A stretch of DNA of 64,000 nt from an uncultured Candidatus Saccharibacteria bacterium (lineage in GTDB: Bacteria; Patescibacteriota; Saccharimonadia; Saccharimonadales; JACDBH01): assembly GCA_964644965.1 (NCBI GenBank), contig CAZXYN010000002.1, positions 3,075-67,074 on the forward strand. The letters are read 5' to 3'. The position numbers and the translations under genes are program-made. Of the stretch, positions 24,419-63,169 are shown piece after piece (position 1 is the stretch's first letter; each line of letters starts with the position of its first letter). Below the pieces are notes generated by a model. The model was not told the DNA's origin, did no database searches, and saw nothing but the letters and a program-made list of their open reading frames with translations.

Positions 24419-24424
24419 GGTCCC

Positions 24425-40894: not shown

Positions 40895-40916
40895 AACTGT
40901 ACATAATCATTGTAAA

Positions 40917-41038: not shown

Positions 41039-41055
41039 GCGCATCAAGGAGTAAT

Positions 41056-41769
41056 ATGGCGGGTCATAATAAATGGAGCAAAATCAAACGCGGTAAAGCT
41101 GTAGAAGACGCTAAGCGCGGTGCCGTATTTACCAAAATCGGCAACCAAATTGCCATAGCAGCACGCTCTGGTTCTGATCCTAATATGAACCCATCACTAG
41201 CTATGGCAATCGAAAAAGCCAAATCTGCCAACATGCCGCTGAGTAACATTGAGCGCGCCATTGCCCGCGTGTCTGACAAGTCTGCTGCGCAGTTGCAGGA
41301 GGTCATGTACGAAGGTTATGGTCCGGGTGGTGTAGCGACACTTGTCGAATGCGCTACAGATAACGTCAATCGTACCTACCCAGAAGTTAAGAATGCTTTT
41401 AACAAGCACGGTGGCAGTATTGCCGAAAAGGGCGCTGTGGCGTTTCAGTTTACGCGCAAGGGCGTGATTGTTGCCGAGGGTGGCGGTGATGATCTCATGA
41501 TGGCGGCACTTGATGCTGGCGCAGAAGATGTTCAGGAAGAAGACGGCGAGACAATTATTTACACAGCTCAGACAGATCTAGCCAAAGTTAGAGACGCACT
41601 CAAAGCAGCTAGTATTGAAATCAAGGAAGCTGAATTATCTTATGAACCAAACAACACAATTATAATTGAAGACGAAACTACGGCTGGCAAAATAATGCGT
41701 CTGATGGACGCGCTCGATGAGCTTGATGATGTTAGCAACACCTATACCAACTTTGATATCAAGGATTAA
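41056..41769 (+). CDS. yebC: YebC/PmpR-family transcriptional regulator
   Basis: MAGHNKWSKIKRGKA..D.KRG..F.K, and its position upstream of ruvC. Confidence 0.93.
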   Translation: MAGHNKWSKIKRGKAVEDAKRGAVFTKIGNQIAIAARSGSDPNMNPSLAMAIEKAKSANMPLSNIERAIARVSDKSAAQLQEVMYEGYGPGGVATLVECATDNVNRTYPEVKNAFNKHGGSIAEKGAVAFQFTRKGVIVAEGGGDDLMMAALDAGAEDVQEEDGETIIYTAQTDLAKVRDALKAASIEIKEAELSYEPNNTIIIEDETTAGKIMRLMDALDELDDVSNTYTNFDIKD

Positions 41770-41772
41770 TCA

Positions 41773-42246
41773 ATGAGAATCATAGGCATTGATCCGGGCA
41801 CCGGAATACTTGGTTTTGGTATCATTGAAGTCACTAAGGGCAAGCCGCAACTGGTTGACGGTGGGATAATACGCACTCCTATCAAAGAAGACGATGCCAT
41901 TAGGCTGCTTACAATTTATGAGGAATTAACAGATATTATTGCTGCTACAAAGCCGCAGGAAATGGCTGTGGAGAAGCTTTTCTTTGCCAAAAACGTTACT
42001 ACAGCTATGACTGTAGCGCAGGCTAGGGGAGTGGTGTTACTAACGGGCATGCAGGCGGAGCTCAAGATTAGCGAATACACACCAATGCAAATAAAACAGG
42101 CTGTAACAGGTTACGGCCGAGCCGAAAAGAAGCAGATTCAGGAAATGGTTAGAGTAATATTGAACCTTAAGGAAGTGCCGCGGCCGGATGATTGTGCTGA
42201 TGCGCTTGCCTGCGCCATTACTCATGCCCAAACTATCAGGGTCTGA
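41773..42246 (+). CDS. ruvC: Holliday junction resolvase RuvC
   Basis: MRIIGIDPG...GFGII, EKLFF, and DDCADALACAITH. Confidence 0.93.
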   Translation: MRIIGIDPGTGILGFGIIEVTKGKPQLVDGGIIRTPIKEDDAIRLLTIYEELTDIIAATKPQEMAVEKLFFAKNVTTAMTVAQARGVVLLTGMQAELKISEYTPMQIKQAVTGYGRAEKKQIQEMVRVILNLKEVPRPDDCADALACAITHAQTIRV

Positions 42247-42277
42247 ATATTTTTTGGTCGGTCGCTAGTATGAGATA

Positions 42278-42868
42278 ATGGAACCAATGATTGCAACACT
42301 TTCTGGGACTCTAAGCGAAAAACTGTCGGATGTAGTAGTTCTAGAAGTTGCTGGAGTTGGCTATGGACTGTATATAACAGTCGAAGATTATAGCTCGATT
42401 CACATTGGCGAAGATATAAAGTTCTATGTTTACGAACACATTCGTGAGCAAGCCCATGACCTGTTCGGTTTCTCGAATCTTGATGGCAAAAAACTCTTTG
42501 AGCAACTGCTCGGTGTCAAAAACGTTGGTCCAAAGGTAGCCATGGCAGTGCTTGATATTGGTACGACAGATACTGTTCGATCGGCAATTGCAAACGGCGA
42601 TGTGAAGATGTTGCAAGCTGCAAAGGGCGTTGGAAAACGAGCAGCCGAACAGATTGTGGTTGAGCTTCGCGACAAGGTCGGCATATCAGCATCCGAATCA
42701 GCCGAAGATATCGTTAATCGTCCAGGCATGAACGGACAAGACGAAGCAACAGAAGCTTTGGTTGCGCTTGGCTACAGCCCACAGGATGCAAGCTTGGCTC
42801 TGAAGCGAGTAGACAAGGCCCTACCTGTCGAAGAACGTGTTAGGCAGGCGCTGAAGGGTAGTTTCTAG
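42278..42868 (+). CDS. ruvA: Holliday junction DNA helicase RuvA
   Basis: MIATLSG.L, L.GV.GVGPK.A..L, and a C-terminal domain III. Confidence 0.92.
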
Positions 42869-42870
42869 CC

Positions 42871-43908
42871 ATGGCGGTTGAGCGAATAGTACATACAGTT
42901 GCTGGCGATGATGATCAGCAAGAAGTCGAATTAGAAATTACATTACGGCCTAAGGATTTTGCGAACTACATCGGTCAGGAGAGGCTTAAGAAAAACCTAC
43001 AGCTTGCGATTGACGCTGCCAAGAAGCGTGGTGAACCACTTGATCATATTTTGTTATATGGCCCCCCGGGACTCGGTAAGACCACCATGGCTAGCGTTAT
43101 TGCTAAAGAGATGGGTGCGCAGATTCGCGTTACAAGTGGTCCGGCAATTGAGCGCGCTGGTGATTTGGCAAGCCTGCTCACCAATCTACAAGACGGCGAC
43201 ATTCTGTTTATTGATGAAATTCACCGTTTGCACCGAAGTGTTGAAGAGGTGCTCTACAGTGCCATGGAAGATTACAAGATAGATATCATGCTCGGCAAAG
43301 GTCCAAGTGCACGCAGTATGCGTCTGGATGTGCCTAAATTTACGCTAATTGGCGCGACTACTAGGACTGGAGCCCTGGCTGCTCCACTACGTGATAGGTT
43401 TGGTATTATTCACAGGCTCGAATTTTATTCACCAGATGAAATTGCCCAGATTATTATACGTGCAGCCGATATCTTAGATAGCAATATTAAGCCAGAGTCT
43501 GCAGCGTTACTATCTACTCGATCAAGACTGACTCCGCGTATTGCCAACAGGCTGCTAAAGCGAGTCCGAGATTACGCCGATGTCAACGGTGATGGGATCA
43601 TTGACACAGAGATTACTCATGCTGCGTTAGGATTACTCGAGATTGATGAGCTTGGCCTAGACCCAGCAGATAGGCATTTGCTGGAGAGAATTATTGAAAA
43701 CTATGGTGATAGCCCAGTAGGCTTAAATACGCTTGCTGCGTTAACAGGTGACGAGGCTACCACTATCGAAGATTTTTATGAGCCTTATCTCATGCAGATT
43801 GGACTGCTCGAACGGACACCGAGGGGTAGAAAAGTTACCGTCAAGGCTTACGCTCATCTTGGCGGAGATCAGAAAAGAAAACCATCAGATCAGGCAAAGC
43901 TACTCTAA
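42871..43908 (+). CDS. ruvB: Holliday junction DNA helicase RuvB
   Basis: [29 protein letters not shown], and GATTR.G.L..PLRDRFG. Confidence 0.97.
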
Positions 43909-43949
43909 TCTAGAGCAGAACTAAGCAAAAAGGTATACTAAAGAAGAAT

Positions 43950-44564
43950 ATGAACGAATCAGAAAAAGACATCCATCACAGGCGGCAGACCGAAACTAGA
44001 TTGTCTACCGAAGGTCGTAAATACTTTAGATACATAGAGTTTGATGCTGACGAAGAGCTTGTCACCGAAATTAGAAAGCATCCTGTAGGTCTAGCTATCA
44101 TCATACTAACTGGTGGGTTTGTTATGCTGGCACTAGCTATAGTTGGTATCTTTGCTTCTGTTACTGACTTCGTAGGTATAACTGGGGCTCAAGAAACATC
44201 TCAAGTCGGGGCATTAATAACCATAGTCTGCATATTGCTAATTATAGGTGCGGCAGTCATGACCTTTATTGCGGCGTTCTTATACAACAGTAACGTAATA
44301 TTCGTTACTAGTGAAAAGATTGCCCAAGTTGTTTATAAGAGTCTATTCAATAGAAAGATATCTCAGCTTTCAATTGGTGATGTGCAAGATACGACTGTTA
44401 CTCAAAAGGGCGTAATTGCTCACATGTTCAACTATGGAACTCTGGTGATTGAGACAGCCGGTGAACAGCAGAACTATACATTCACCTACGTCCCCGATCC
44501 ATATCAAGTATCAAAAATGATTGTTGGATCACACGAACGGAACCTAAAGGATTTTGGCAACTAG
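43950..44564 (+). CDS. bPH_2 (DUF304, YdbS/YdbT-like) membrane protein
   Basis: Two TM segments followed by a PH-like region (IFVTSEKIAQVVYKSLFNRKISQLSIGDVQD...GTLVIETAG). Confidence 0.7.
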   Translation: MNESEKDIHHRRQTETRLSTEGRKYFRYIEFDADEELVTEIRKHPVGLAIIILTGGFVMLALAIVGIFASVTDFVGITGAQETSQVGALITIVCILLIIGAAVMTFIAAFLYNSNVIFVTSEKIAQVVYKSLFNRKISQLSIGDVQDTTVTQKGVIAHMFNYGTLVIETAGEQQNYTFTYVPDPYQVSKMIVGSHERNLKDFGN

Positions 44565-45145
44565 TAACTCTCCGCTGGGGCAGTCAGTGGGTCGTCGCAA
44601 CTAAGACAATAGCCCGGGTAGGTTGCTGGTTGGTGTGGATGAGCCTGGCAGGGACCCTCTAAACAGAAATAAACACTACTATTGATGCCAAAATCTTCTG
44701 CCCAATCAGTCCTAGGGAACTTACAAGTTTCAGGTTGTCCAATTTCACAGTATCGAATACTAATCTGAAAAGCCCATTCGCTACCAACCTGGAAGGCATC
44801 ATAATCATAGACACTTCCGGGCCACGGTGCATGCGGCCATGCGTCAGAATCATTGCCCTGTACAAACTCCTCGATGCCGGGTGGAATGTTTCTATCAACA
44901 TCCGCTGGGTAGTCACCGTATTTCAAGATAAATAGGTTTATTGCTGAGCGCATTGTGTTCATCTCGGCTCCGGCTCGAGCAAGATAGGCGCGCTCTCGGC
45001 CGCTAAAAAGATTCGGTATGGTAATGGCCGCTAAAATACCTAGGATCACCATAACGACGAGCACTTCAATAATCGTAAAACCCTGTTCGCTCAGTGGGCT
45101 GATTTTAAGTTTTGACAAGAGTCTCCTCACTCGAGCGTCAGGCAT
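44561..45145 (-). CDS. Type IV pilin-like protein with Cys-rich C-terminal domain
   Basis: Prepilin motif EQG-FTIIEVLVVMVILGILAAI after a 21-aa leader. The globular part has 8 Cys. Confidence 0.75.
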   Translation of the reverse strand: MPDARVRRLLSKLKISPLSEQGFTIIEVLVVMVILGILAAITIPNLFSGRERAYLARAGAEMNTMRSAINLFILKYGDYPADVDRNIPPGIEEFVQGNDSDAWPHAPWPGSVYDYDAFQVGSEWAFQISIRYCEIGQPETCKFPRTDWAEDFGINSSVYFCLEGPCQAHPHQPATYPGYCLSCDDPLTAPAESY

Positions 45146-45153
45146 ATTATGAC

Positions 45154-45444
45154 CTACTCCGTGAAAGGATTATTTCGCGACTCTTCGAACAATGCCTTAA
45201 CTTCAATATTTTGGTCTTCAAGTTCTAGTAGTGTTCGAGCTGCATCCTCATCTAGATTGGGTCTTTCTGTACTACTGACTTGGTCAAGTACGCTTCCCTT
45301 TGATGGCTCGCGTAGTACCTGCTGACTGCTGGTCCAGAGTATTACTCCGCACAGACCTGCAAAAATAGCGACAGCAATTACAAATCTGTATTTTTGTAAT
45401 TTTTCAATCAGTAGTCTGGATTGTTTTTTTAAATCATTCATCAT
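45154..45444 (-). CDS. Small TM protein in the pilus cluster
   Basis: One TM segment. It is translationally coupled (ATGA overlap) to the upstream pilO-like gene. Confidence 0.5.
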   Translation of the reverse strand: MMNDLKKQSRLLIEKLQKYRFVIAVAIFAGLCGVILWTSSQQVLREPSKGSVLDQVSSTERPNLDEDAARTLLELEDQNIEVKALFEESRNNPFTE

Positions 45445-46079
45445 GGTTTCACAAAACTTTTTAGATTAAGGCTAAAGGAAACGTAGTCAGGATTTCCTAC
45501 GTTTGGAGTGATTGATATATTGCTCACCTGAGCCGTTCTACGGTTATTCTCAAGTCGTCGCAAGTAGTCTAGTAGCTGGTCATAGGTAATATTTTGTTCA
45601 GGGTCTGCGGTGATAGTTATAGTCATTTCGTAGACGCCCTTCAGGCCTTCTACTTCTGTTAGCTGAGTTAGGCCTGAGGTGCTGGACGACCCTCCTCTTG
45701 CAAGACTAGGACCAGAAGAAGCCTTTGATTTCTTTGTTACTTGACCTAGTTCGGATGCCGGAAACTGAACACTCTGGATGTTTATACCTGATTTCTTGGC
45801 AAGCTCCACAATTTCCAAAACGGTTTTTGCTTGATCTTTTTCCTGGGGCACTATTGCTTTTGTGATGAGTTCGAGATCTTTATACTCAGCTATGTCTTTT
45901 ATCGCCTGATCCAGTAATTTTTGCTTTTCATCTGCTACTTTGGACTCGAGCTTGGCTTTTTCTAACTCATCACCTTGTTTAATAACCATCTTGTAACCAC
46001 CATAAGTTACACCTAAGCCAAGTATAACAAGCAGGCTCACAACTCCAACCATACCTAGAAATGCTTTCTTGGCGTTCAT
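45441..46079 (-). CDS. pilO: PilO-like pilus assembly protein
   Basis: N-terminal TM segment plus coiled coil, its position after pilN, and overlapping stop/start codons. Confidence 0.6.
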   Translation of the reverse strand: MNAKKAFLGMVGVVSLLVILGLGVTYGGYKMVIKQGDELEKAKLESKVADEKQKLLDQAIKDIAEYKDLELITKAIVPQEKDQAKTVLEIVELAKKSGINIQSVQFPASELGQVTKKSKASSGPSLARGGSSSTSGLTQLTEVEGLKGVYEMTITITADPEQNITYDQLLDYLRRLENNRRTAQVSNISITPNVGNPDYVSFSLNLKSFVKP

Positions 46080-46675
46080 CCTTCCGGCTCCTTATACAAT
46101 TTTAAGAATGAGTCATTGTCTTCGGCAAAAAGGGCACGAATTGAAGATGTGCAAGGGTATGTCGAGTTAGAATCGGTTCCCGCGCACTTAACTTCGCCAA
46201 TATCTGCTTTGTCGAATATTCGGTCTTCACCGGTAGTAAGATTGACCTGGGCTTTTACACCAGACTCATAGTCCACCGACAAGATAGTGAGATCAAGCGC
46301 ACCGGTAAGATCACTGTTTAGAGAAAGTGACGTTAGAACGGTGTCTGGCGGCATGACCTTGCCGATTTCGGTAAGAAGCTTCGAGAAAAGCACTTCATTT
46401 GATAGAACATCGAGCGTAAGTTTTAGATTGCCGCTTAGTTCGTTTACTCGCGCAATTACTTCTTCTTGGTTGCGTTCCTCTAGCGATTGGTTCATCTTAT
46501 CGGCTGCACTTACGTGTTGGTTTGTGTCTTGTTTGAGATAAAATAAACTTCCGCCAGTAAACACCATAAGTCCCAAGACAGCGATACCTACCCCAATAAC
46601 CCAACCAATAAGTTGGCTATTGAGCCTTGAATAAGAAATTGATTTCTTATTGGTGTCTGGCATCAAGTTGATCAT
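46076..46675 (-). CDS. pilN: PilN-like pilus assembly protein
   Basis: MINLMPD (INLLP-type) N-terminus, a TM segment, and its position after pilM. Confidence 0.7.
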   Translation of the reverse strand: MINLMPDTNKKSISYSRLNSQLIGWVIGVGIAVLGLMVFTGGSLFYLKQDTNQHVSAADKMNQSLEERNQEEVIARVNELSGNLKLTLDVLSNEVLFSKLLTEIGKVMPPDTVLTSLSLNSDLTGALDLTILSVDYESGVKAQVNLTTGEDRIFDKADIGEVKCAGTDSNSTYPCTSSIRALFAEDNDSFLKLYKEPEG

Positions 46676-47751
46676 TTCCAGATCTCCTCAGGCTTTGTGA
46701 TCGCCGTGCCGGCTACGGTGACATAAAGGGACTTTTCGGCCTCTGATGGAGGCTGTAAATCATCAGTTTGAAAGCTGCTCCAGAAATTGCACATGCGAGT
46801 TGCTATACGTAGATTGTCGGTCATGTAGTCAACAAGCCCTGGCATATTAGAGCCGCCACCCATAGTTATAATCTGACCAATGGTTGACTTACCATCGGTA
46901 CGCTCTTCGTAGTAGCGGACAACACGGCGGATTTCTTTGACGAGCGAATCAAGCTGTGGCTTGAGGGCCTCTCTGATTTCTGTCTGGTGCTTACTAACGC
47001 CTAGACCGTATTTCGTCTTAATGCTGTTGGCTTCAGCCTTGCTGACGCCGAGCTTTTCAGAGATTCGATTGGAAAAATCATCACCACCACCTGGAATTGT
47101 TCCATTGACCACTAGGTTTTTGTCAAACACGGTCAAGTCAACGGATAATGAACCAAGGTCAATCAGAATGGTTGGAGTATCCTGGCTGTTCTCGACTTTT
47201 GAGATGATACGGCTGGCTGCAGAGATGGTTGTTTCGAGCGCACAGACTTCTAGGCCAATCAGCTCGAAAAACTTCATGTAGGAGTCCACAATCGTTCTAG
47301 GAGCACCTACGATCAGTACTTCTACTTGGTCGTCATGCCGATTTACGATTTCGTGATCCAAGTAGAGCTCTTCTATAGGGATTGGAATGTACTGGGCGGC
47401 TTCAAGTTTGACGGCTTCATCGAGCTCTTTCTTTTTGAGCTTGGCGGGCAAGGTTATGACTCGAGAGTAGGCCTTGGATGCTGGCACTGTAGCAACTACG
47501 CGTCTAGTAGTAATGTTGCCAATGACATTTTTCTTAAATAACTCGGTAGCTGATTTTGCGATTGACTCGTAGTCTACAATTACACCGTCTTTTATGGCTT
47601 TTTCGTCAAACTTGGAAACGCCGTAGCCGATAACAGTAGTAGATTTTTTGTCGTCCTCAAGCTGCATGACTTTAATCGTGTTAAAGCCAATATCAAGCCC
47701 GAAAAGTGGCTTGTCCTTGTAAAAAAGTGTTTGGGAGTTATTTGTGCCCAC
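46672..47751 (-). CDS. pilM: Type IV pilus assembly ATPase-like protein PilM
   Basis: Actin-like fold blocks FGLDIG...IKV and IDLGS..VDLTVF. Confidence 0.85.
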   Translation of the reverse strand: MGTNNSQTLFYKDKPLFGLDIGFNTIKVMQLEDDKKSTTVIGYGVSKFDEKAIKDGVIVDYESIAKSATELFKKNVIGNITTRRVVATVPASKAYSRVITLPAKLKKKELDEAVKLEAAQYIPIPIEELYLDHEIVNRHDDQVEVLIVGAPRTIVDSYMKFFELIGLEVCALETTISAASRIISKVENSQDTPTILIDLGSLSVDLTVFDKNLVVNGTIPGGGDDFSNRISEKLGVSKAEANSIKTKYGLGVSKHQTEIREALKPQLDSLVKEIRRVVRYYEERTDGKSTIGQIITMGGGSNMPGLVDYMTDNLRIATRMCNFWSSFQTDDLQPPSEAEKSLYVTVAGTAITKPEEIWK

Positions 47752-47820
47752 GATAATCCAGCGGTGCCCTCGGTTTTCTTTAACCTTTAGTATATCAAAC
47801 TGCTTACGCTTCGAACAGGG

Positions 47821-49278
47821 CTATTCGAAGTCATACTGGTAGCTTCGTATGCTCCAGCCTGAACTTCCAGTGGCGAGTCCAGTGCCAAAATTAATCGTTC
47901 CGCTTCCACTCATACGTACACTTTGCCCAAGGGCAGATCCTACATTTCCAGAACCAGTAATGTGAACTCGTCCCCAGTACGATTGGAATATCGCAGAGTT
48001 TAGATTACCTGAGCTACCGCCGATGGTTACCGTTTCAAAGCTTTGCGAGCTGCTAAGCTGAGATCCCGTCAAAGTCGTACAATTTGGATTGCAAGCCGCA
48101 TTAGATCTGAAGCTTATAAATCTAACCCCTGTTCCACTTGAATTGGGTATGACTGTAGATGAGTTAGTTGTTATAGCGCCATCGACTAACACGATTGGCG
48201 CTGTCGTGCCTACAGAATCTGAAACTCTGATTCTGCCTGACGCGGCAAAGCTAAAATTACCGGTTATGTAGACATTGCCATTTATAGTTAAATCACAGTT
48301 GTTTGAATTGAAATTGCCATCTAGTCTTATATTTGCTGGCCATGTTCGGACAAAGCCATGTGGATTTTGCCACTGGCTGCAATCGTAGGTAATATTGTTG
48401 CTTGCGGTGGTAGTTGTCATGGAGGCAATATGAGCGACTCGGTCATAGGTAGGCATTGTAGTTACAGGTGCGACACAGCCAGGAACCAATCCTGCACCAG
48501 TGCTCCCGCCTGTAATTTGGGTATTTGCTCCACCAATCGGAAACTTGGTCTGGGTTTGATGCGTCGCGCAAATGGTGCCAACTATCATGTTATTACCGCC
48601 ATTGTTCGTAATTGTGATAGCTTCTCCTGAGGTACATTGCGTTGGATAAGCGTTGCCAGTACCACAGTTGGCATTTGCGACCGATATATTAAGCGGTTGT
48701 GCAACCGTGCCAATTCCAACACTTCCGGAGTTGGACATAGTAATCTTTCCATTTACATGCACATTTGCCGCGTTGAGGATTCTTCCATTATCCATTATTA
48801 GACCACCCGGTCCTGCATGTACAGCATATCCAGGTGATGAGGTAGGTACGATAGTTACTCTTACTCGGCGTTCTTTTTCAAGGCTCCCTGATTTATTATA
48901 TGCACGTCCAATTGAGATGATGACTTTTTCGTTAGGCCCTGTACCATCTTCGACAATAGTCTCGTACGTGCCACGCCCCTGATCGGCATTGTCATAAAAT
49001 TCCCCATCTTCTTCTGGGTAACCAAGAAATGTACTGTCGGAAGTTATTGCCTTGACCGACCTCTCAATACCGGCCTCAGCAGTAAGTAATGCATTGCTAA
49101 CATAAACGTTTTGAGTAGTACGTCGAAGTTGCACAATCGCTACTTGTGCTATGGATATACCCACAAAAGTAAGAAGCAATCCAGCGAGTAATACGGTAAT
49201 GAAGACAATGCCTTTTTGGTTTTTATGAAGCTTATAATTTGCAAATGTTGGAAAGTATTTGCGTAGAATCTTACTCAT
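47821..49278 (-). CDS. Large (485 aa) pilus-cluster protein, N-terminal hydrophobic anchor, Gly/Thr/Asn-rich repetitive body
   Basis: The N-terminal segment IVFITVLLAGLLLTFVGISIAQVAIVQL is PilX-like but has no G-F-T-x-x-E site. The rest looks like beta-rich repeats with conserved Cys. Confidence 0.55.
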   Translation of the reverse strand: MSKILRKYFPTFANYKLHKNQKGIVFITVLLAGLLLTFVGISIAQVAIVQLRRTTQNVYVSNALLTAEAGIERSVKAITSDSTFLGYPEEDGEFYDNADQGRGTYETIVEDGTGPNEKVIISIGRAYNKSGSLEKERRVRVTIVPTSSPGYAVHAGPGGLIMDNGRILNAANVHVNGKITMSNSGSVGIGTVAQPLNISVANANCGTGNAYPTQCTSGEAITITNNGGNNMIVGTICATHQTQTKFPIGGANTQITGGSTGAGLVPGCVAPVTTMPTYDRVAHIASMTTTTASNNITYDCSQWQNPHGFVRTWPANIRLDGNFNSNNCDLTINGNVYITGNFSFAASGRIRVSDSVGTTAPIVLVDGAITTNSSTVIPNSSGTGVRFISFRSNAACNPNCTTLTGSQLSSSQSFETVTIGGSSGNLNSAIFQSYWGRVHITGSGNVGSALGQSVRMSGSGTINFGTGLATGSSGWSIRSYQYDFE

Positions 49279-49960
49279 TTCTAAATACAGTCCTTGTGCT
49301 ATAGTTTACATCTACTTCTCTCCCATATTTTTGGGTACGAAGATTCAGCGATACTTCAACAGCTCTAGCGTTTTCTGGCTCAACTTCATCTCCCAAGCCA
49401 TCATAGTAGCGAAACTGCAGTGAATAGACATTCTTGACGGACAATCTGTCGCTCGGACAATCATCTGTAGCATCTTCAGGGGGGCAAGTGGTATTCGATG
49501 AATTACCAGGAACTTCGTTAGCCAAAGTTCTCTTGTAGAGGGTGCCATTCTCTACATAGTAAATAATATTGTCTTTCTCCGATATGTAGTGAGATGCATC
49601 GGCGAAAATAATTTCATTACTCTCATTAGTCGCCGCAGTATTCAACACTAGCGTGTCGACATCGGATTCCCAGCCATAACCATTGGTTGCAGCAGCGTCT
49701 GGCGAGTAAATATCTTCCACAGAGTTGTTTGCTGCTGATGATGCACTGAGTCGGATATCTTTTACCATGACATCAAGTGACAGTTGGGCTTCGCGCAATA
49801 AATCAGCGCGAGCTGATCTGATACTGTTATTTACAAGCGACGTAACAAGAAAAGTCATTATTCCTATAAATAAAAGTGATGATATTGAAATGGCTACCAG
49901 TAGCTCAATGAGAGTAAATCCTTTCTCGCCTTTATGGGGTGTATATCTTTTCTGAATCAC
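49271..49960 (-). CDS. Minor (PilW-like) pseudopilin
   Basis: EKG-FTLIELLVAISISS prepilin motif. Confidence 0.75.
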   Translation of the reverse strand: MIQKRYTPHKGEKGFTLIELLVAISISSLLFIGIMTFLVTSLVNNSIRSARADLLREAQLSLDVMVKDIRLSASSAANNSVEDIYSPDAAATNGYGWESDVDTLVLNTAATNESNEIIFADASHYISEKDNIIYYVENGTLYKRTLANEVPGNSSNTTCPPEDATDDCPSDRLSVKNVYSLQFRYYDGLGDEVEPENARAVEVSLNLRTQKYGREVDVNYSTRTVFRNE

Positions 49961-50370
49961 TGGCCTATTCCTACCACCCCAATTAATGAGCTTTGTTTTA
50001 CGGTCTTGGTATTACTACCATCTTTGTATGTAATAGTTACATCAACTCTTCTTAAATCGTCTTCTGGCTCAGAAATTGCAACTGTACCAGATCTAGGAGA
50101 GGGAAGCTGTGCTGGCAGGTCGCTTGTAAAATCTAACGTTGTCTCAGGCTCGAGGCTGCCGTACTGGAGGTTGCGCAGTGACTCAATCTGGCTTTCACCG
50201 GCCCGGGTGGCAATCTCTAGATGGTAGCTCCTTCTTTGAGCTTCCTCAATCGCGATGTAGAGATTCACAATGCCAATTATCAACAACCCTGACAGTGCAG
50301 AAGTAACAATTAGTTCGATGAGTGTAAACCCAGACTCGCTTTTTCGCATCATAATCTTTAGCATAAGCAT
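49957..50370 (-). CDS. Minor (PilV-like) pseudopilin
   Basis: ESG-FTLIELIVTSALSG prepilin motif. Confidence 0.75.
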   Translation of the reverse strand: MLMLKIMMRKSESGFTLIELIVTSALSGLLIIGIVNLYIAIEEAQRRSYHLEIATRAGESQIESLRNLQYGSLEPETTLDFTSDLPAQLPSPRSGTVAISEPEDDLRRVDVTITYKDGSNTKTVKQSSLIGVVGIGQ

Positions 50371-50372
50371 AA

Positions 50373-50406
50373 CAAAAACCGGCTACCAGGGGCAACCGGT
50401 TTTTTG
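50373..50406 (-). terminator. Intrinsic terminator/attenuator between pilA and the minor pilin genes
   Basis: AACCGG...CCGGTT stem with a 13-nt loop between A- and T-tracts. Confidence 0.6.
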
Positions 50407-50423
50407 TGGCTCGAAGTGTTGAA

Positions 50424-50822
50424 CTATTGGTTTACGCTCTCTAGGACGTAACGGTGTTGATCACCTTCAGTTACACCGTCTGGATCATTTTCGTTCTCCA
50501 GAACTGCGTAGATTTCGTATGATTCGCCATCGCTGGTGTATACATAGTCATCATTCGCTGCGCCTTTAGGGCCATACATTTCTTCTGCGGTCACATCAGC
50601 ATCATCTAGAGCATCCTCATCAGCTGGGTAGCTACCGTTGTCGTTGAAGTATGTCTCAAGCTTCGTCTGAACGTTCTTGAGTTCGTTCTTGCGGTCTGTA
50701 TCACGGCCACGAGCCTGTGCGCTAAACAAGTTAGGCAAGGTCAGGGCAACCAAGATACCAATAATTACGATTACAACCAACAATTCGATGATGGTGAAAC
50801 CTTTTTGATTCATTTTTCGCAT
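50424..50822 (-). CDS. pilA: Major type IV pilin
   Basis: QKG-FTIIELLVVIVIIGILVAL, small size, and a strong terminator downstream. The likely start is Met4 (MNQKG leader). Confidence 0.85.
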   Translation of the reverse strand: MRKMNQKGFTIIELLVVIVIIGILVALTLPNLFSAQARGRDTDRKNELKNVQTKLETYFNDNGSYPADEDALDDADVTAEEMYGPKGAANDDYVYTSDGESYEIYAVLENENDPDGVTEGDQHRYVLESVNQ

Positions 50823-50930
50823 TTTAAGTCCACTCCTTTAGAATGCATATTTTTTAGTAATATCTTGAGATTATACCGCTTAAGCTAAGATGTCAACAAT
50901 TTGTTTTCTATATTTAGCTAAAAAATGTGT

Positions 50931-52142
50931 CTAAACAGCGCCCTGAATATTCATAATTGGACCCAGCACACTGAGTACGATTAAGCCAACAATACCACCA
51001 AGCCCAACAATAAGTATAGGCTCGATAATAGATGCAATACTGCTGGTAATCTGATTGACTTCTTCTTCGTAGAATTCGGCAACTTTGTCCAGAACTTCGC
51101 CCAGCTGACCGGTCTCCTCACCAACGGCTGTCATCTGGATAATAATTGCCGGCAACACTTGGCTATCCGCCAGCGAATCAGCGATGTTGGCGCCGTTTTT
51201 GATACCCTGTATGGCATCTTGTAAGCCCTTCTGAATGACGACATTGGTCAACGCCTTGCTCGTCACATCTAGGGCATCAATCACCGTCACACCGGCTGAG
51301 AGTAGCGAGCTAAAGGTTCGCGAGAATCTGGCTACATTGACCTTCATAATAATATTTCCAAAGATAGGAAGCCTTAGTAGGAATTTATGGTAAGCGTATT
51401 TACCCTTTGGATTGCCAGTGAATCTCTTGAATGCAAACACCGATAGGATGATAGCGGCAATGATGATGTACCACTGATTGGTCATAAAGTTACTTATACC
51501 TAAGACAATTTTTGTCTGAATCGGAAGCTCACCGCCAGCGCCCTCCAAGATGCTGGCAAGTTTTGGAATCACACCCACCATCAGGAAGCCCACAGCACCA
51601 ATCGCAACTAGCGTTACGACAACCGGGTAAACCATGGCGCTCTTGAATTTACCTTTGATTTCACTGTCCTTTTCGACCTGGTTAGCAAGTCGGTTCATGA
51701 TTTGATCCAAGATACCACCGGCTTCTCCGGCACGAACCATGTTAATGTAGACGCTCGAAAATACCTTGGGGTGCTTGGCTAGTGAATCTGATAATTGCAT
51801 ACCGCCCTCTACGTCGGCGATAACAACAGCAAGAGTTGTCTTAAGTCCTGCAGAATCCGTCTGCTCTTGCAGCGTGGTTAAAGCTCGCAGCATTGGCACA
51901 CCGGCGCTGACCATAGTGCTGAATTGCCTAGTGAAAACAACTAGTGATTTTGGTTTGACCTTATTCCCACCGGGCAGTTTGATGTTCATCTGCATGCCGC
52001 CTTTTTTGGCGGGCTTTACGGTTTGAGGAGTCAAACCTCTTTTGACGAGCATACTGACAGCATCCTCCCGCGTACCAGCGCTGATCGTACCGTTTACAGA
52101 TTTGTCACCTTTGTCTTTGGCGGTGTAGTTAAAATCAGCCAT
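50931..52142 (-). CDS. pilC: Type IV pilus platform protein PilC
   Basis: Two GspF repeats (FTRQFSTMVSAGVPMLRAL and FSRTFSSLLSAGVTVIDAL) and 3 TM segments. Confidence 0.93.
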   Translation of the reverse strand: MADFNYTAKDKGDKSVNGTISAGTREDAVSMLVKRGLTPQTVKPAKKGGMQMNIKLPGGNKVKPKSLVVFTRQFSTMVSAGVPMLRALTTLQEQTDSAGLKTTLAVVIADVEGGMQLSDSLAKHPKVFSSVYINMVRAGEAGGILDQIMNRLANQVEKDSEIKGKFKSAMVYPVVVTLVAIGAVGFLMVGVIPKLASILEGAGGELPIQTKIVLGISNFMTNQWYIIIAAIILSVFAFKRFTGNPKGKYAYHKFLLRLPIFGNIIMKVNVARFSRTFSSLLSAGVTVIDALDVTSKALTNVVIQKGLQDAIQGIKNGANIADSLADSQVLPAIIIQMTAVGEETGQLGEVLDKVAEFYEEEVNQITSSIASIIEPILIVGLGGIVGLIVLSVLGPIMNIQGAV

Positions 52143-52310
52143 TGAGTCTTAATCCCCGTCTTTTTTCTGTTAAGCGAAAGATATTCTGGCAGTACCAGGA
52201 GTTCATTCTTACGATGAAGTATATACGATTATATATTGACGATAAAAATGGAATCATGGCACTGCCAGAATAGCTTGAGGCTGGAAAGAAGGCAGGGATA
52301 AGACTCATAA

Positions 52311-54119
52311 TTAGTCCTCGCTCGTGGCTGTTACGCGCAGTATTTCTTCGATTGTGGACTGGCCACGGAGCGCTTTGATAAATCCATCTAACTGCATGGT
52401 GACCATGCCTTCCTTGATCGCTTGCTGGTTAATGACTTCTGATGTTGAGTTACTAACAATTAGCTTCTGGACAGCGTCTGAATTATGGAGAACTTCGTAT
52501 ATACCGATTCTACCTTTGTAACCGGTCTTATTACAGGCCGGACAGCCACCGGCATGAGCCTTCCAGATACGGTTAATTTTGGTTTCTGTTGTACTGAGCG
52601 AATCACTGGATTGCTTACCTTGATTACTCTTGCCAATACCACCTTCTAGAGCCTTTTGTTCGAGCCCGTGAAGGTATTTCATCATCGGGGTGTCAATATG
52701 AAATGTTTCGGTGATGCGTTTGAGCGTTGGCGCGTCTGGCTCTACTTCTTCGCGGCATTCCGTACAAAGTCTTCGAATCAGCCGTTGGCCAACAACAGCA
52801 CGGACAGTACTGGCAATTAAAAACGGTTCGATACCCATATCGAGCAGACGCGGCAGGCAGGTTGCAGCGTTGTTGGTATGTAGCGTGCTGAATACAAGGT
52901 GACCCGTCAGTGCCGCTTGGACACCAAGACTAGCAGTTTCGCCATCACGAATCTCACCGACCATAATGACATTTGGATCCTGACGCAGCAGGGCTCGCAG
53001 ACCGTTGACGAATGTCATGCCGGCAACAGGGTTAACCTGAGTCTGGTTGGTACCGGGTACCCGGTATTCCACTGGGTCTTCTACTGTAGAAATGTTCACG
53101 GTCGGACTGTTTATCATCGATAGAACACTGAACAAGCTAGTACTCTTACCAGAGCCGGTTGGACCAGTAACTAGTACCATGCCGTGCGGCTGAACAATCG
53201 CGTCCTTGATATCGTTTAGCGATTTGCCCCAGTAACCAAGCTCCTCTAGAGTCAGCGCCTTACTGGATTCATTCAAAATACGCATGACGACCTTTTCGCC
53301 ATCGACAATAGGTAGTGTCGAGACACGCAGAGCATAAATAGCACCATTGGCAGAAATCTTGAATCTTCCATCCTGTGGAGCGCGGCGTTCATCAATCTTT
53401 AGGTTACTAAGGATTTTGATACGAGACACTAGTGCAGACATGACTTTCTTGGGTAACTTGTTGGTCTCCTTTAGAATACCGTCAATACGATAGCGTACAG
53501 ATACAAAGTTCTCGCGCGGCTCGATATGAATATCACTAGCACCAGCTTTGACAGCGTATTCAATCAATAAGTTTACGGTCTGGGCAATCGGTGAATCCTC
53601 GGCCACATCTTCTTCTGAAACATTTTCATCGATGTCTTCGGCCAGTTCTTCTGGTGTCATGACTTTTGTTAGCTCGGTGCCGATTTCGCCTCGATATTGG
53701 TCTAGGCAGGCGGCAATGTTTTGCTTGGTCGCCATGGCTACCCGGATGTCCTCGCCGAGCTGTTTCTTGAGGAAGTTTACGGCCTCAACATCATCAGGGT
53801 TTTCGGTGGCAAGGAGCTTAGCACCTGTCTCGTCAACACCGTACAGTACGACATTGTACTGGTTGGCAATGCGCTCTGGAATGAGCTTAAGAATCTCTAG
53901 TTTGATAGCCTTTGGATCGAGCTCTACAAATGGAACTTCGATTTCATCGGCATACAATTTCGTCAGATCTTTTTCGCTGACCACATTTGATTTGATGACA
54001 ATGTCTTGGAGCGCAGCTTTAGCATTGCCCGATTGTTCTCGAACTGTGGCCAATTGTTCTTCAGTTGCCTTGCCACCTTTTATCAGCAACTCTTTTACTA
54101 ATGCATCAGAAATACGCAT
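52311..54119 (-). CDS. pilB: Type IV pilus extension ATPase PilB (GspE family)
   Basis: GPTGSGKST Walker A, Asp box, IMVGEIRD Walker B, His box, and tetracysteine CTEC...CPAC. Confidence 0.95.
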   Translation of the reverse strand: MRISDALVKELLIKGGKATEEQLATVREQSGNAKAALQDIVIKSNVVSEKDLTKLYADEIEVPFVELDPKAIKLEILKLIPERIANQYNVVLYGVDETGAKLLATENPDDVEAVNFLKKQLGEDIRVAMATKQNIAACLDQYRGEIGTELTKVMTPEELAEDIDENVSEEDVAEDSPIAQTVNLLIEYAVKAGASDIHIEPRENFVSVRYRIDGILKETNKLPKKVMSALVSRIKILSNLKIDERRAPQDGRFKISANGAIYALRVSTLPIVDGEKVVMRILNESSKALTLEELGYWGKSLNDIKDAIVQPHGMVLVTGPTGSGKSTSLFSVLSMINSPTVNISTVEDPVEYRVPGTNQTQVNPVAGMTFVNGLRALLRQDPNVIMVGEIRDGETASLGVQAALTGHLVFSTLHTNNAATCLPRLLDMGIEPFLIASTVRAVVGQRLIRRLCTECREEVEPDAPTLKRITETFHIDTPMMKYLHGLEQKALEGGIGKSNQGKQSSDSLSTTETKINRIWKAHAGGCPACNKTGYKGRIGIYEVLHNSDAVQKLIVSNSTSEVINQQAIKEGMVTMQLDGFIKALRGQSTIEEILRVTATSED

Positions 54120-54223
54120 ATTATTAACGGTTAGTATACCTTAAAAAGCGTAAGCAATATACAGCCACTACAAAAAACTTGACGGCCTTGTATTGGCGCG
54201 GTAAGCTATCGTGTTCATGCTTG

Positions 54224-54307
54224 CCCGGAAGTAGATCTTCGTGCGGCTCGTCATGGACGAGCCAGGCATCCGCTTAGAGCAGATGCACACGAAGGCTCAC
54301 TTCCGGG
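54224..54307 (-). repeat. Family-2 structured hairpin element, copy Y1 (inverted relative to Y2)
   Basis: Arms are CCCGGAAGTAGATCTTCGTG / CACGAAGGCTCACTTCCGGG. The apical region contains two 8-bp hairpins (GGCTCGTC.GACGAGCC and GCATCCGC.GCAGATGC on the plus strand). Confidence 0.7.
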
Positions 54308-54311
54308 CTTG

Positions 54312-54396
54312 CCCAGTAGTGAGCTTTCGTGAACATTTTACAAGGTAAAATGTCTGGTCTCGCTAAGGCGATACCGCACGAAAGTCTACTACTGGG
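54312..54396 (+). repeat. Family-2 structured hairpin element, copy Y2
   Basis: Arms are CCCAGTAGTGAGCTTTCGTG / CACGAAAGTCTACTACTGGG. Apical hairpins are ACATTTTAC-AAG-GTAAAATGT and GGTCTCGC-TAAG-GCGATACC. Confidence 0.7.
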
Positions 54397-54491
54397 CTTG
54401 CACAGACAATTGGAACTCCAATGCGGCTATGCTTGCACTAGTCAAACCAATACAATATAAAGTAAGTACAAAGATAAGAGAGGGAAATACG

Positions 54492-55529
54492 ATGGCAAAA
54501 GCACAGTCTGACACACCAAAAAAAGAATTAGCACCAAAAGAGGTAAAAGAAGATGGCAAGACCAAAGCATTAGGTTTAGCTGTCGATCATATCGAAAAAC
54601 AGTTCGGCAAGGGCACAATCATGCGCCTCGGTGAGAGCACGCACCAGAATGTTGAATGTTACCCAACCGGCAGCGTCTCTCTAGACCTCGCCCTTGGCGG
54701 CGGCATTCCAAAAGGCCGTATTATAGAAGTATACGGGCCAGAAAGCTCTGGTAAGACAACCCTCACTCTCCACGCAATTGCAGAGGTTCAGAGAGCAGGC
54801 GGTGTGGCGGCATTTATCGATGCCGAGCACGCACTCGATCCGCAGTACGCTCAGCGAATCGGTGTAAACCTAGACAATCTACTGGTATCTCAGCCAGACA
54901 ACGGCGAGCAGGCACTAGAGATTGTCGAATCACTGGTACGCAGTAATGCAGTTGACCTGATTGTTGTCGACTCTGTTGCGGCGCTCGTACCACAGGCGGA
55001 AATCGAAGGCGATATGGGTGACAGCCATATGGGTCTGCAGGCTCGTCTGATGAGCCAAGCGCTACGCAAGCTGACGGCAATTATTTCTAAGTCTAAGAGC
55101 ACAGTGATTTTCATCAATCAGCTTCGCATGAAGATCGGCGTTATGTTTGGCAACCCAGAGACAACCACTGGTGGTAACGCGCTCAAATTCTACGCTAGCC
55201 TGCGTATGGACATCCGCCGTACATCACAGATCAAACAGGGTGACCAAGTAATCGGCAACCGCACCCGGGTAAAGGTGGTCAAGAACAAAATCGCACCGCC
55301 ATTCCGCGAGGCCGAGTTTGACATCATGTACAACGAAGGTATTAGCCGCGAGGGCGATGTGCTCGACCTAGCTGTAAATAAAGAGATTGTCGAAAAAGCT
55401 GGCGCCTGGTTCAGCTACGAAGGCGAAAAAATAGGGCAGGGACGTGAGGCATCCAAGTCTTATCTGAAAGAAAATCCAAAAGTCCTCGAAAAAATAGCCA
55501 AGCAAGTCATGGAAGCCAACAAGGTTTAA
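54492..55529 (+). CDS. recA: Recombinase RecA
   Basis: [28 protein letters not shown], and [28 protein letters not shown]. The start is set at MAKAQ with a GAGAGGGA RBS. Confidence 0.97.
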
Positions 55530-61501: not shown

Positions 61502-62095
61502 ATGCAGACAGAGATTGAATCAAAATTCCTTGATGTAAACCATGAAGAAATCAGATCTAAGCTTAAAAGCCTAGGTTCTGAGTGTGTTTGCAAGGAACGA
61601 CTTATGCGTCGAAAGAATTTTGATTTCCCAGACAGAAGACTCGAAAATGACAGAAACGGATGGGTACGTGTTCGTGATGAAGGGGATAAAGCAACACTCG
61701 CATACAAGCAGCTAGATAACAGAGACCTAGACGGTACAAAGGAAGTCTCGGTTACTGTGAGTAATTTTGATGATACTTGTAGGCTACTAGAGAGTATAGG
61801 TCTTAAAGTAAAATCTTATCAAGAAACAAAACGAGAGAGCTGGGTTCTTGATGGAGCAGAGATAGAGCTCGATGAATGGCCTTGGGCAAAACCTTTTATA
61901 GAGATAGAAGCAAATACAGAAGAAGTGATGTTTGAGACGATAAAAAAGCTTGGATTAGAGAAATCTGATGCAGTTCACGGAAGTGTTGAGATTGTATATA
62001 CTTCGGAATTCGATGTAACAGATGAAGACGTTGATTCCTGGGAAGAGATAGTATTCGTCAGTATACCAGAATGGCTAGAGAAGCGAAGAAAATGA
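61502..62095 (+). CDS. CYTH-domain (triphosphate tunnel metalloenzyme / CyaB-like) protein
   Basis: N-terminal EIESKF (ExExK) motif, alternating charged beta strands, and length ~190 aa. Confidence 0.7.
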   Translation: MQTEIESKFLDVNHEEIRSKLKSLGSECVCKERLMRRKNFDFPDRRLENDRNGWVRVRDEGDKATLAYKQLDNRDLDGTKEVSVTVSNFDDTCRLLESIGLKVKSYQETKRESWVLDGAEIELDEWPWAKPFIEIEANTEEVMFETIKKLGLEKSDAVHGSVEIVYTSEFDVTDEDVDSWEEIVFVSIPEWLEKRRK

Positions 62096-62883
62096 ACATT
62101 CTATATGTCGGAGACATCATGGGAGAGGTTGGGATTGAGACTGTTGAAAGAGTCTTGCCTGATCTGCTAGCAGAAAAGTCGGTGGACTTAGTAATTGCTC
62201 AGGCCGAGAACGTGAGCGAGGGCAAGGGAATGATGCCGGCTGACATGAAGAGACTACAATCAGTTGGAATTAACTTTTTTTCTGGTGGAAACCACACTCC
62301 AAGCAAATCAGAACTAACACCGCTACTAGAGGATGAGAACGCACCGGTCATTGGCCCGGCAAATTTAGAAGATTGCCCCGGAAGAGGCTGGAAGTATATC
62401 GAAACAGTGAAGGGCAAAGTTCTTGTGATCTCACTTATGGGTGACAAAGTCGGGACACCGATTGAGTTCGGCAATCCGCTAAAAGCTATTGACGAAATTC
62501 TGATCCAAAACCAAAACGTTGATCGGCAAGCGACAATTGTAAATTTCCACGGTGATTTTAGTAGCGAAAAGGTCATTATTGGTCACTATCTGGACGGGCG
62601 AGTAAGTGCGGTAATCGGCGATCACTGGCATGTGCCAACAGCAGATGCGCGTGTTTTGCCAAGTGGGACTGCCCACATGACAGATGTCGGCATGTGTGGC
62701 GTGCTTAATAGTAGCTTGGGTGTCACCTTCGATAGTGTCATTCCGCGTTGGCGTGATGGTATCCAGACCAAAAACGAGCTGGAAACAAAAGGACCACGTC
62801 AGTTTAACGCGGTTCTAATTGATGTTGATGAATCTACCGGCAGGGCAAATTCCATCGAACAGATTCAAATAATAAAAGGCTAA
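62092..62883 (+). CDS. ymdB: YmdB-family metallophosphoesterase (2',3'-cNMP phosphodiesterase)
   Basis: MNILYVGDIMG, AQAENVSEGKG, GNH, and NFHGD. The rny-ymdB neighbourhood is conserved. Confidence 0.88.
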   Translation: MNILYVGDIMGEVGIETVERVLPDLLAEKSVDLVIAQAENVSEGKGMMPADMKRLQSVGINFFSGGNHTPSKSELTPLLEDENAPVIGPANLEDCPGRGWKYIETVKGKVLVISLMGDKVGTPIEFGNPLKAIDEILIQNQNVDRQATIVNFHGDFSSEKVIIGHYLDGRVSAVIGDHWHVPTADARVLPSGTAHMTDVGMCGVLNSSLGVTFDSVIPRWRDGIQTKNELETKGPRQFNAVLIDVDESTGRANSIEQIQIIKG

Positions 62884-62908
62884 ATTCTCTCTTCGTTCTT
62901 CGTTTATC

Positions 62909-62980
62909 GGGAAGAGCAGCCAGACAAAATGTATTCCATTTTGCCTACGCGATGAGAAACCCCGAAGGGGTGTCTCATTA
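62909..62980 (+). repeat. Family-1 two-hairpin repeat, copy C
   Basis: GGGAAGAGCAGCC AGACAAAATG TATTC CATTTTGCCT ACGC GATGAGAAACCCCGAAGGGGTGTCTCATTA. It abuts the stop codon of the convergent small ORF. Confidence 0.8.
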
Positions 62981-63169
62981 CTAAAGCTCGCTCTTGCCAC
63001 GAAAACCAAAACCAGCTATGACTATGCTTGCGATCATATTGACGATCACAATGCTGACTAGCGAAAGCTCTGGGTCAATTGCCAGCAGCGCTGCGCTACC
63101 CAACCATATAATGCCGATGGCACCAGCTGTGTACGGGTATTTGATGAACAGTACAAATTCCTTAAGCAT
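62981..63169 (-). CDS. 62-aa two-TM small membrane protein
   Basis: Two hydrophobic helices. Its start overlaps the upstream ABC1-kinase gene end. Confidence 0.5.
   Translation of the reverse strand: MLKEFVLFIKYPYTAGAIGIIWLGSAALLAIDPELSLVSIVIVNMIASIVIAGFGFRGKSEL

Follow-up and report, generated by a model that had tools for sequence, protein, structure and literature searches.

The closest described counterpart to the element analyzed here is the insertion with long target duplication (ILTD) of restriction-modification genes, in which target duplications of 30-400 bp extend over start or stop codons; most cases come from naturally competent species (PMC2853133). The element, which we call E, is a short two-hairpin repeat with four copies in 64,000 nucleotides of DNA from an uncultured Candidatus Saccharibacteria bacterium (assembly GCA_964644965.1, contig CAZXYN010000002.1, positions 3,075 to 67,074); this whole stretch is called the window in the following. 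As in ILTD, E lies between variable direct repeats of tens of bases or more, which often run over a start or stop codon, the target gene is intact and no transposase is linked to it. The direct repeats exceed about 30 bp, the empty site holds a single copy of the repeated segment and no linked mobility gene was found. The difference is that ILTD concerns unique gene cassettes of kilobases, whereas E is a 75-nt structured repeat family with many sites in many genomes. ILTD reportedly goes back to Nobusato et al. in 2000, alongside Furuta et al. in 2010. E is best filed as a small structured mobile repeat with the signature of ILTD; we think that it is probably a small non-autonomous mobile DNA element specific to Saccharibacteria and not a fixed RNA gene.

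Saccharibacteria and other bacteria in the candidate phyla radiation (CPR) have genomes of about 1 Mb, which are regarded as almost devoid of repeats and mobile DNA, and they depend on DNA uptake. In other bacteria several kinds of small repeats are well described. REPs carry a GTAG/CGTC tag, consist of one imperfect palindrome, occur in hundreds of copies and make no target duplication; REPINs are inverted doublets. [quoted passage not shown] The palindrome-associated transposable elements (PATEs) of IS200/IS605 have similar subterminal hairpins at both ends and insert 3' of a fixed tetra- or pentanucleotide without duplication. Integron attC sites carry R''/L''-L'/R' boxes (RYYYAAC...GTTRRRY) within one long imperfect hairpin and form arrays beside intI/attI.

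The preliminary description of the window, which was made from its letters, had placed four copies of a two-hairpin repeat in it. Sequence inspection, pattern searches and a covariance model (R1) confirmed all four at these places. R1 was built from 94 distinct copies, and the window was scored whole with the filters off; three copies (A, B and C in Table 1) reached 84-91 bits, the fourth (D) is decayed, and no further convincing match to R1 was present in the window. A pattern search of the window returned three exact matches to the 5' box of E and three to its second hairpin, P2, compared with no P2 match in 100 shuffles. Copies A, B and C each fold into two hairpins, on either strand, while copy D folds no better than shuffled sequences.

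The duplications at the flanks of E were examined by comparing 90 nt to the left with 90 nt to the right of each copy; mismatched left and right flanks served as controls. Flank repeats scored above the 99th percentile of the controls in 31 of 108 copies and above the control maximum in 23. The flank duplication, for which the preliminary description saw stronger evidence at lepA than at copy C, is a general and statistically strong property of the family. Such repeats accompany about a quarter of the copies and are 35-76 nt long and variable in length. Under a permissive alignment they abut E: the gap is 0-7 nt on the box side and 0-4 nt after P2, or 12-15 nt if a third hairpin (P3) is present. 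They cover a start or a stop codon and extend into the adjoining non-coding bases. The inner boundaries of the duplications vary, which makes a single site-specific endonuclease site unlikely; at the 3' end of lepA the boundaries range from 23 nt to over 62 nt. At copy C the flank duplication was not significant in this test. The diverged duplicate that had been suspected on its left gave an alignment score of about 5.5 against a control mean of 6.7, so this part of the preliminary description did not stand.

In the window lepA is flanked by E on both sides. Past its 3' end the order is lepA, first direct repeat, copy A, second direct repeat and copy D. Similar layering occurs in two other loci (L012 and L009), and the array in L009 reads lepA-end/E/end/E/end. 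The layered copies are not of one age, since an intact copy A stands next to a decayed copy D and the second direct repeat matches the first at 35 of 36 positions; for this reason a simple tandem duplication of a gene end together with E was rejected. The template and variable repeats of diversity-generating retroelements were also rejected, since adenines are not where the mismatches fall and the repeats have little length. The same holds for the idea of a guide RNA, in which a scaffold with a flank-derived guide would act on empty sites; the filled allele keeps both target copies intact, and 5' and 3' gene ends alike show a direct repeat. For the window's own strain only the same filled allele was found when we looked for an empty site, with contigs broken at the repeat. 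In the Logan contigs of this strain (L001-L004, L126-L127), which are short-read assemblies, the breaks coincide exactly with the stop codon of lepA and with the beginning of the displaced repeat.

E is about 72-90 nt long and has neither an open reading frame (ORF) nor terminal inverted repeats. It begins with a purine-rich, single-stranded 5' box (GGGAAGAGCA). The box had been described as single-stranded, but its last bases (..GC of CAGCC) are paired in a short helix, P0. In this helix the box contributes the GC of CAGCC and the linker GCGCGAU its own GC, a C is bulged out, and the pairing covaries (GCAGCC/GCGC, GCAGUC/GCAC, GCAACC/GCGU). The next hairpin, P1, keeps its base (CCGA.../...CCGG) and a 1x1 internal loop that is always mismatched, as A.C, C.C or C.U across the family. 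Its upper part is freely variable and has at times grown into an extra hairpin, which gives variants of 79-108 nt. Hairpin P2 contains an A.G mismatch and a GAA loop, both of which are conserved. Only a subset of copies has P3, a mini-hairpin after AUAA with the form GGC-GNA-GCC, covarying with GCG...CGC.

The substitutions that had been pointed out in the window are real. The P1 interior changes between GCACCAGG/CCTGTGC and CAAAATG/CATTTTG with pairing kept, and P2 of copy B (as lettered in the preliminary description) carries the changes ATGAGA/TCTCAT to TTGAGA/TCTCAA and ACCCC/GGGGT to ACCCA/TGGGT. The A-C mismatch of P1 belongs to the 1x1 loop that the family conserves, the A/G mismatch of P2 and the GAA loop are conserved too, and the compensatory change extends to 119 copies. 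RNAalifold predicted 21 pairs from 94 copies, 14 of them with compensatory changes. In a model-fitted alignment of the 119 copies, 97.3% of the cells are standard pairs, compared with 31-58% when the partners are slid by 1-3 columns. Double changes occur in 16 of the 21 pairs, with 521 double-change cells against 148 ± 11 in shuffles; with about 119 copies aligned the covariation is overwhelming. The invariance of the P2 core in this alignment is partly a product of the P2 search pattern. On the box-to-P2 strand G.U pairs are more frequent than A.C pairs (39 vs 22) and pyrimidine-pyrimidine mismatches more frequent than purine-purine mismatches (29 vs 13). Because of these two biases there is a mild sign in the sequences that this is the strand which folds, as RNA or as single-stranded DNA.

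When 185,579 species-representative genomes were scanned for the P2 pattern (GAGAAACCNNGAANNGGTGTCTC), 117 loci were returned, of which about 105 contain a complete E. The hosts are nearly all metagenome-assembled genomes (MAGs) of Saccharibacteria/Saccharimonadales, or MAGs that are classified no further than 'bacterium' or Patescibacteria. The few pattern matches in other phyla are without box and P1 and were discarded as chance or unrelated. With R1, more diverged copies were found within the same 8-kb loci, often several per locus. One locus contains a diverged subfamily with several copies within 1 kb (L102, 5457-5535, 5764-5843 and 6249-6329), in which the box reads GGGAAAAGAGCAGCC and P2 reads GAGAAAAACCGCATGGTTTGTCTTG; the family is therefore broader than the search pattern.

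No known family accounts for E. A search of the whole window against Rfam 15 at the gathering threshold matched only three tRNAs, and a permissive search of 24280-24700 gave only chance-level matches of at most 16 bits; a known RNA family or ribozyme, HEARO and riboswitches included, was rejected because nothing matched at either threshold. A blastn search against phage and plasmid collections gave no match to E. An origin from these sources was rejected on this basis, the four pattern matches in IMG/VR being P2-like strings in an unrelated low-GC contig. This viral contig (IMGVR_UViG_3300046018_000099; L122/L124) encodes many proteins made of WLSxNPNAIELLRENPDKI repeats, and the P2-like matches lie within coding sequence. 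A resemblance of the box to signal recognition particle (SRP) RNA (GGAAGCAGCC) was judged coincidental; the sequence after many copies is 5S rRNA and not SRP RNA. A literature search found no description of E, which thus appears not to have been described before. These three kinds of search bear out the preliminary description in its failure to recognise a named family. Its proposal of a novel small mobile element or structured RNA is supported as well, and the evidence favors a mobile DNA element.

E is always non-coding in position and lies beside gene ends in every configuration. The most frequent sites are the 5' or 3' end of lepA (16 loci), the region downstream of mraZ (14 loci) and the position directly upstream of tRNA genes (11 loci with at least seven different tRNAs, at a distance of 4-14 nt). 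In at least seven loci E occupies the 23S-5S spacer and ends 3-4 nt before the 5S rRNA. Recurrent sites are also the 3' ends of alaS and ychF and the 5' ends of typA and msrA. The P2 end of copy C is at the stop codon of the convergent gene, abutting or overlapping it, and about 19 other copies are placed alike. As had been described, copy C abuts the CTA (TAG) stop of the ORF at 62981-63169, and the minus strand reads TAG TAA TGA. The statement that E is always found at gene termini holds within the window, but elsewhere E also stands 3-14 nt before tRNA and 5S rRNA genes and inside 23S rRNA.

The latter case is seen in L082, where the 23S rRNA gene has two E-bearing insertions in opposite orientations. 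The first (3700-3815, about 115 nt) carries E in plus orientation in an apical loop at position ~1218 of the large subunit rRNA (LSU) model, which is the helix-45-type site, a classical one for intervening sequences. The second (4920-5065, about 145 nt) carries E in minus orientation in an apical loop at LSU model position ~2238. The fact that both orientations occur within one 23S transcript argues for an insertion at the DNA level. In a survey of Saccharibacteria rRNA genes, 64 of 66 insertions were short (250 bp or less) and without intron or endonuclease, and no repeat family was recognised among them (PMC11270868). Insertions of the L082 type may account for part of these.

If E has inserted into the terminal 10-20 codons of a gene, at its start or at its end, the gene receives a whole new end from the duplication and the old end remains as a relic. 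After insertion at a 5' end the native promoter and the old start codon remain upstream. In all 10 of the 5'-end insertions examined, the old start opens a short ORF which passes through the reverse complement of E and terminates either on the new start codon or a few bases away from it (ATGA, GTGA, TAATG). Two of the three reverse frames of E are usually open (58% and 75% of copies vs 35-45% in shuffles). We read this pattern as a putative survival filter, by which only those insertions that keep the gene expressed would persist.

A comparison with close relatives indicates that the sites are not occupied permanently. The LepA of the window is 76-80% identical to LepA of Candidatus Saccharibacteria MAGs, and its best relatives in the database carry the label Saccharibacteria or Saccharimonadales. 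Relatives with a LepA 89-93% identical to it have the same murJ-lepA-gmk order with different spacers. In one of them (L129) murJ and lepA are separated by 42 nt with a promoter-like CACCTCTGTTATAAT followed by ATG; it has no E, and its 3' spacer is clean too. The lepA 5' site is also empty in L131/L132, and the empty sites of L129 and L131 hold one copy of the segment that is duplicated in the window. Another relative (L128) has a decayed E (9.5 bits) and decayed relics of both lepA ends. On this comparison of sequences, the lepA sites go through a cycle of gain, decay and re-invasion and are not a fixed feature of the locus. Among the Saccharibacteria relatives this conserved, promoter-like motif (CACCTCTGTTATAAT) precedes the start of lepA by 15-25 nt (L129, 1470-1490; window, 22405-22430), and it is also found beside the displaced lepA 5' ends in L037, L081, L089 and L113. 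In L131 the empty lepA 3' spacer contains a lone mini-hairpin similar to P3 (AAGCGGCGTAGCCGC; 3290-3325), which may be the last remnant of a lost copy.

The working and displaced gene ends differ in an informative way. Sorted by codon position, the differences number 71 at position 3, 21 at position 1 and 9 at position 2; when whole codons are counted, 64 are synonymous against 19 non-synonymous ones. All differences are synonymous in L067 (10 of 10) and in L083 (5 of 5). If the extreme terminus of the protein is variable, the two copies of the end differ in the way orthologues do (L012, L071). The codon-position bias contradicts neutral decay of a duplicate in place. Because of the third-position bias, the two ends must have diverged while both were functional, in different lineages, and this implies recombination between lineages. 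E could come in together with a foreign gene end, or the working gene could later be replaced by a diverged allele, with the conserved E as one homology arm.

The similarity among copies is in line with such exchange. Copies at the same site in different genomes are 72.5% alike, compared with 72.9% for copies at different sites, whereas copies within a genome are 74.3% alike and copies between genomes 71.2%, a difference that was reached in 9 of 2000 permutations. In the MAG DATIIC01 all copies (L020, L030, L060, L097) share lineage-specific variants. The results for sites and for genomes fit a frequent replacement or exchange of copies.

Together, these data lead us to the following tentative mechanism. 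Since the stems covary, the form of E which is recognised would be a folded single strand. An enzyme encoded elsewhere and acting in trans would recognise this strand via the invariant box and P2. Insertion would use breaks with a wide stagger, or a small intermediate would recombine in a single crossover, and either route would produce an insertion with long target duplication. In compact genomes the survivors would be only those insertions that spare the neighboring gene. Spread and replacement between lineages would proceed by DNA uptake and RecA recombination, with the conserved gene ends and E itself as homology arms; such spread would be the reason why relic and working ends look like orthologues. 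The window contains a block with the natural-transformation and recombination toolkit (39443-55529; Table 1). Its Pfam annotation otherwise shows ordinary housekeeping genes, and there is no transposase, integrase or reverse transcriptase among the Pfam annotations of the window.

Table 1. Copies of E, their flanking direct repeats (DR) and other annotated features of the window.
Feature	Position	Strand	R1 score	Remarks
Copy A	24342-24418	+	90.3 bits	Box GGGAAGAGCAG, P0, P1, P2; 3-6 nt past lepA stop codon
Copy B	22470-22545	-	83.8 bits	Inverted, between old and new lepA 5' ends
Copy C	62905-62980	+	91.1 bits	Between ymdB and stop codon of 62-aa ORF
Copy D	24579-24637	+	14 bits (E-value 0.03)	Old, decayed; downstream of DR2 of copy A
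DR1 of copy A	24304-24339	+		Last 36 nt of working lepA, TAA stop 24336-24338 plus 1 nt; abuts left end of copy A
DR2 of copy A	24422-24457	+		Displaced duplicate of lepA 3' end; begins 4 nt past E; 35/36 identical to DR1
DR1 of copy B	22544-22587	+		Shine-Dalgarno region and first 10 codons of working lepA; 44-nt alignment to DR2
DR2 of copy B	22427-22468	+		Displaced old lepA 5' end, ATG 22438, MKQDHIRNFC; native promoter region still attached
Working lepA	22557-24338	+		GTG start; LepA domain set
Upstream ORF	22438-22560	+		40 codons, MKQDHIRNFCKLETPILGFSTRQQNGIHFVGLFFPAGGKS; from old lepA ATG through reverse complement of copy B to TGA overlapping new GTG (GTGA)
ymdB	62071-62883	+		Neighbor of copy C
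62-aa ORF	62981-63169	-		Stop codon abutted by copy C
ComEC	39443-40894			Pfam
RuvC/RuvA/RuvB	41773-43908			Pfam
Type IV pilus cluster (pilins, PilM, PilC, PilB)	44561-54119			Pfam
RecA	54429-55529			Pfam

Several observations weigh against a mobile element. No mobilising enzyme was identified in the window or in the loci, and about 0.9 Mb of loci contains no autonomous relative of E that carries an ORF; a version with box and P2 parted by an ORF was looked for in the loci and rejected. The established systems of single-strand transposition (IS200/IS605, integron attC) are not known to duplicate their target. The synonymous bias alone cannot distinguish a duplication made in place from an arrival with foreign DNA. 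Since copies that share a site resemble each other no more than those at different sites do, frequent replacement or saturation has to be assumed. Furthermore, copies within a genome are only 74% identical, which means that there was no recent burst as in typical MITEs. Beside tRNA genes (11 of 11) and 5S rRNA genes (7 of 7) E has a single orientation, with the P2 side facing the gene, and the intact gene is on the box side of E in 11-12 of the 13 independent sites that carry a duplication. This polarity of box side and P2 side could point to a role at the RNA level. The excess of G.U over A.C pairs fits RNA as well as single-stranded DNA.

Some of these points can be turned in favor of a structured RNA module which benefits the host, for example as a transcript-end stabiliser, a processing signal or a leader of stable RNAs. 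It would be kept by selection, and mobility and duplications would be side effects of gene exchange. The pairing is kept by compensatory change across the whole class, with mismatches and loop conserved, and the low similarity within genomes suggests old, maintained copies. The fixed orientation 3-14 nt upstream of tRNA and 5S rRNA genes implies that E is co-transcribed there. In co-directional gene pairs 25 copies are sense and 13 antisense, and the excesses of G.U pairs and of pyrimidine-pyrimidine mismatches on the box-to-P2 strand also agree with an RNA. Against this explanation, close relatives have empty or decayed sites, and copy D of the window is decayed. Inside operons no fewer than 13 copies stand in antisense, every copy at a lepA 5' end among them, and both orientations occur inside one 23S rRNA gene. 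A consensus scan found no promoter within E and, at any copy, no intrinsic terminator with a GC-rich stem and a T run after it; a reading of P2 by hand as a -35/-10 pair was weak and was dropped. Finally, an RNA that acts in cis gives no reason for duplications abutting both ends. We therefore regard the RNA module as unlikely.

A bolder version of the mobile element, in our estimate quite improbable, would make E the first bacterial 'homing cassette' of structured nucleic acid. Here a folded strand of about 75 nt, either RNA or single-stranded DNA, would enter the terminal codons of conserved genes by copying or joining, along with a replacement gene end; this could come about by target-primed synthesis as in short interspersed nuclear elements (SINEs) or by self-primed recombination. 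The cassette would then spread through Saccharibacteria populations by natural transformation in the manner of a gene drive, as a parasite of the CPR lifestyle of DNA uptake.

The plain SINE-like case, a retroelement whose folded RNA is copied by reverse transcriptase at a nicked target (target-primed reverse transcription) to give long variable duplications, is in our view very unlikely. The covarying stems point to a folded single strand as the selected form, one strand has a mild bias of G.U over A.C, the duplications are variable (35-76 nt) and abut both ends, the ends are defined without inverted repeats, and E is certainly transcribed in rRNA operons. On the other hand, there is no reverse transcriptase gene in the 64-kb window and none recurs in the loci, E has no A-rich or other 3' tail, and no excess of 5'-truncated copies was seen in the loci. 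We know of no target-primed non-LTR system in bacteria. The orthologue-like relation of relic and working ends would need DNA exchange between lineages in any case.

It is hardly credible that E is a structure-specific recombination site similar to integron attC, at which a tyrosine recombinase inserts short circular 'cassettes' of gene-end fragment and E at existing copies and excises them there: stems conserved in structure and variable in sequence, with a fixed bulge and mismatch, do recall the extrahelical bases and variable terminal structure of attC, and arrays of gene-end/E/gene-end/E occur in L009, L012 and the window, but the consensus lacks the RYYYAAC/GTTRRRY boxes, neither the window nor the loci show an integrase near E, most duplicated copies have no second E beside the relic, and E has two dissimilar hairpins and a single-stranded box in place of one long imperfect hairpin.

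If E is a mobile DNA element, it resembles REPs and REPINs, which are moved by RAYTs (Y1 transposases of the IS200/IS605 type), in being a short, non-autonomous, long-lived intergenic hairpin repeat with lineage-specific variants. These repeats are also said to be recognised as folded single strands, and we infer the same for E. It differs from them in its two unlike hairpins, its purine box, its low number of copies (few to tens per genome) and its long duplications. The consensus of E shows neither the GTAG/CGTC tag nor the doublet plan, and no RAYT or Y1 transposase was seen in the window or among the recurrent ORF families of the loci, only some of which are annotated. With MITEs (Correia, RUP, ERIC) E shares that it is small, dispersed and without an ORF, that it lies between genes or at gene ends and that it can alter neighboring transcripts. 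However, its ends (YC-GGGAAGAG on the left, GTGTCTCAT(N0-5) on the right) are not mutually complementary, and its duplications are variable and much longer than the fixed 2-10 bp of MITEs. A comparison with PATEs shows that P1 and P2 are unlike each other, that the bases of the left flank are only weakly biased (TC, CT or CC) and that the duplications are long.

Further parallels are found outside of these families. Mitochondrial double-hairpin elements (DHEs) are said to have been studied by Paquin et al. in 2000. These elements, also called repetitive hairpin elements, consist of two hairpins, occupy intergenic and variable rRNA regions and are kept in transcripts; identical copies across species suggest mobility, and they are reported without flanking duplications (PMC10085805; PMC2800124). 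The likeness to E is limited to the two-hairpin plan of tens of bases and to the kinds of insertion site, whereas DHEs are organellar, resemble GC clusters, have no duplications and show no sequence similarity to E. In Allomyces atp6, a free-standing homing-endonuclease insert in the terminal codons reportedly brings a foreign-looking gene end, and the native end is a downstream relic. Homing inserts of this kind are like E in that they lie within terminal codons, provide a new gene end and leave a relic, but they encode their own endonuclease and E has no ORF. One cleavage site for E is, as for the endonuclease considered above, argued against by the variable duplication boundaries. The intervening sequences of 23S rRNA are matched by the copy of E in a helix-45-type hairpin loop; they are defined by rRNA position and excision by RNase III, while E is a genome-wide family for which rRNA is one location only.

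An element of this distribution, present throughout the class and repeatedly remodeling the ends of core genes (lepA, typA, alaS, ychF, msrA), the rRNA operon and the leaders of tRNAs, points to active genome dynamics. E is also a concrete marker of recombination between lineages, and one that can be counted. Some of the 'short insertions' known from Saccharibacteria rRNA genes may be due to E, which also explains the short-read assembly breaks at the genes named above, and E with its duplications is hence a reason why metagenome assemblies fragment at core genes. The mechanism of ILTD has been open since 2000, and E offers a small, defined case of it that could be put to experiment in those few Saccharibacteria that can be cultivated. 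An enzyme guided by RNA or by a single strand, if one lies behind E, would be new.

Two other non-coding features were seen near copies of E. In at least eight loci (L110, 1245-1565; L050, 4877-5150; at least six others) a conserved non-coding stretch of about 300 nt, which begins with GAGGTTAGCTAATCG/GGTTAGCTATCTGGCAG and has no Rfam match, is placed between the mraZ-downstream E and rsmH. Possibly this stretch is a leader or an RNA of the dcw cluster that has not been described so far. In the window a perfect 12-bp hairpin (CCTGTAAAAGGCC.GGCCTTTTACAGG; 24701-24727) with T-rich tails on both strands lies outside E, between the lepA region and gmk, and looks like a bidirectional terminator. 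A partial copy of the hairpin arm (CCCCTGTAAAA) is found just upstream, at about 24669-24680.

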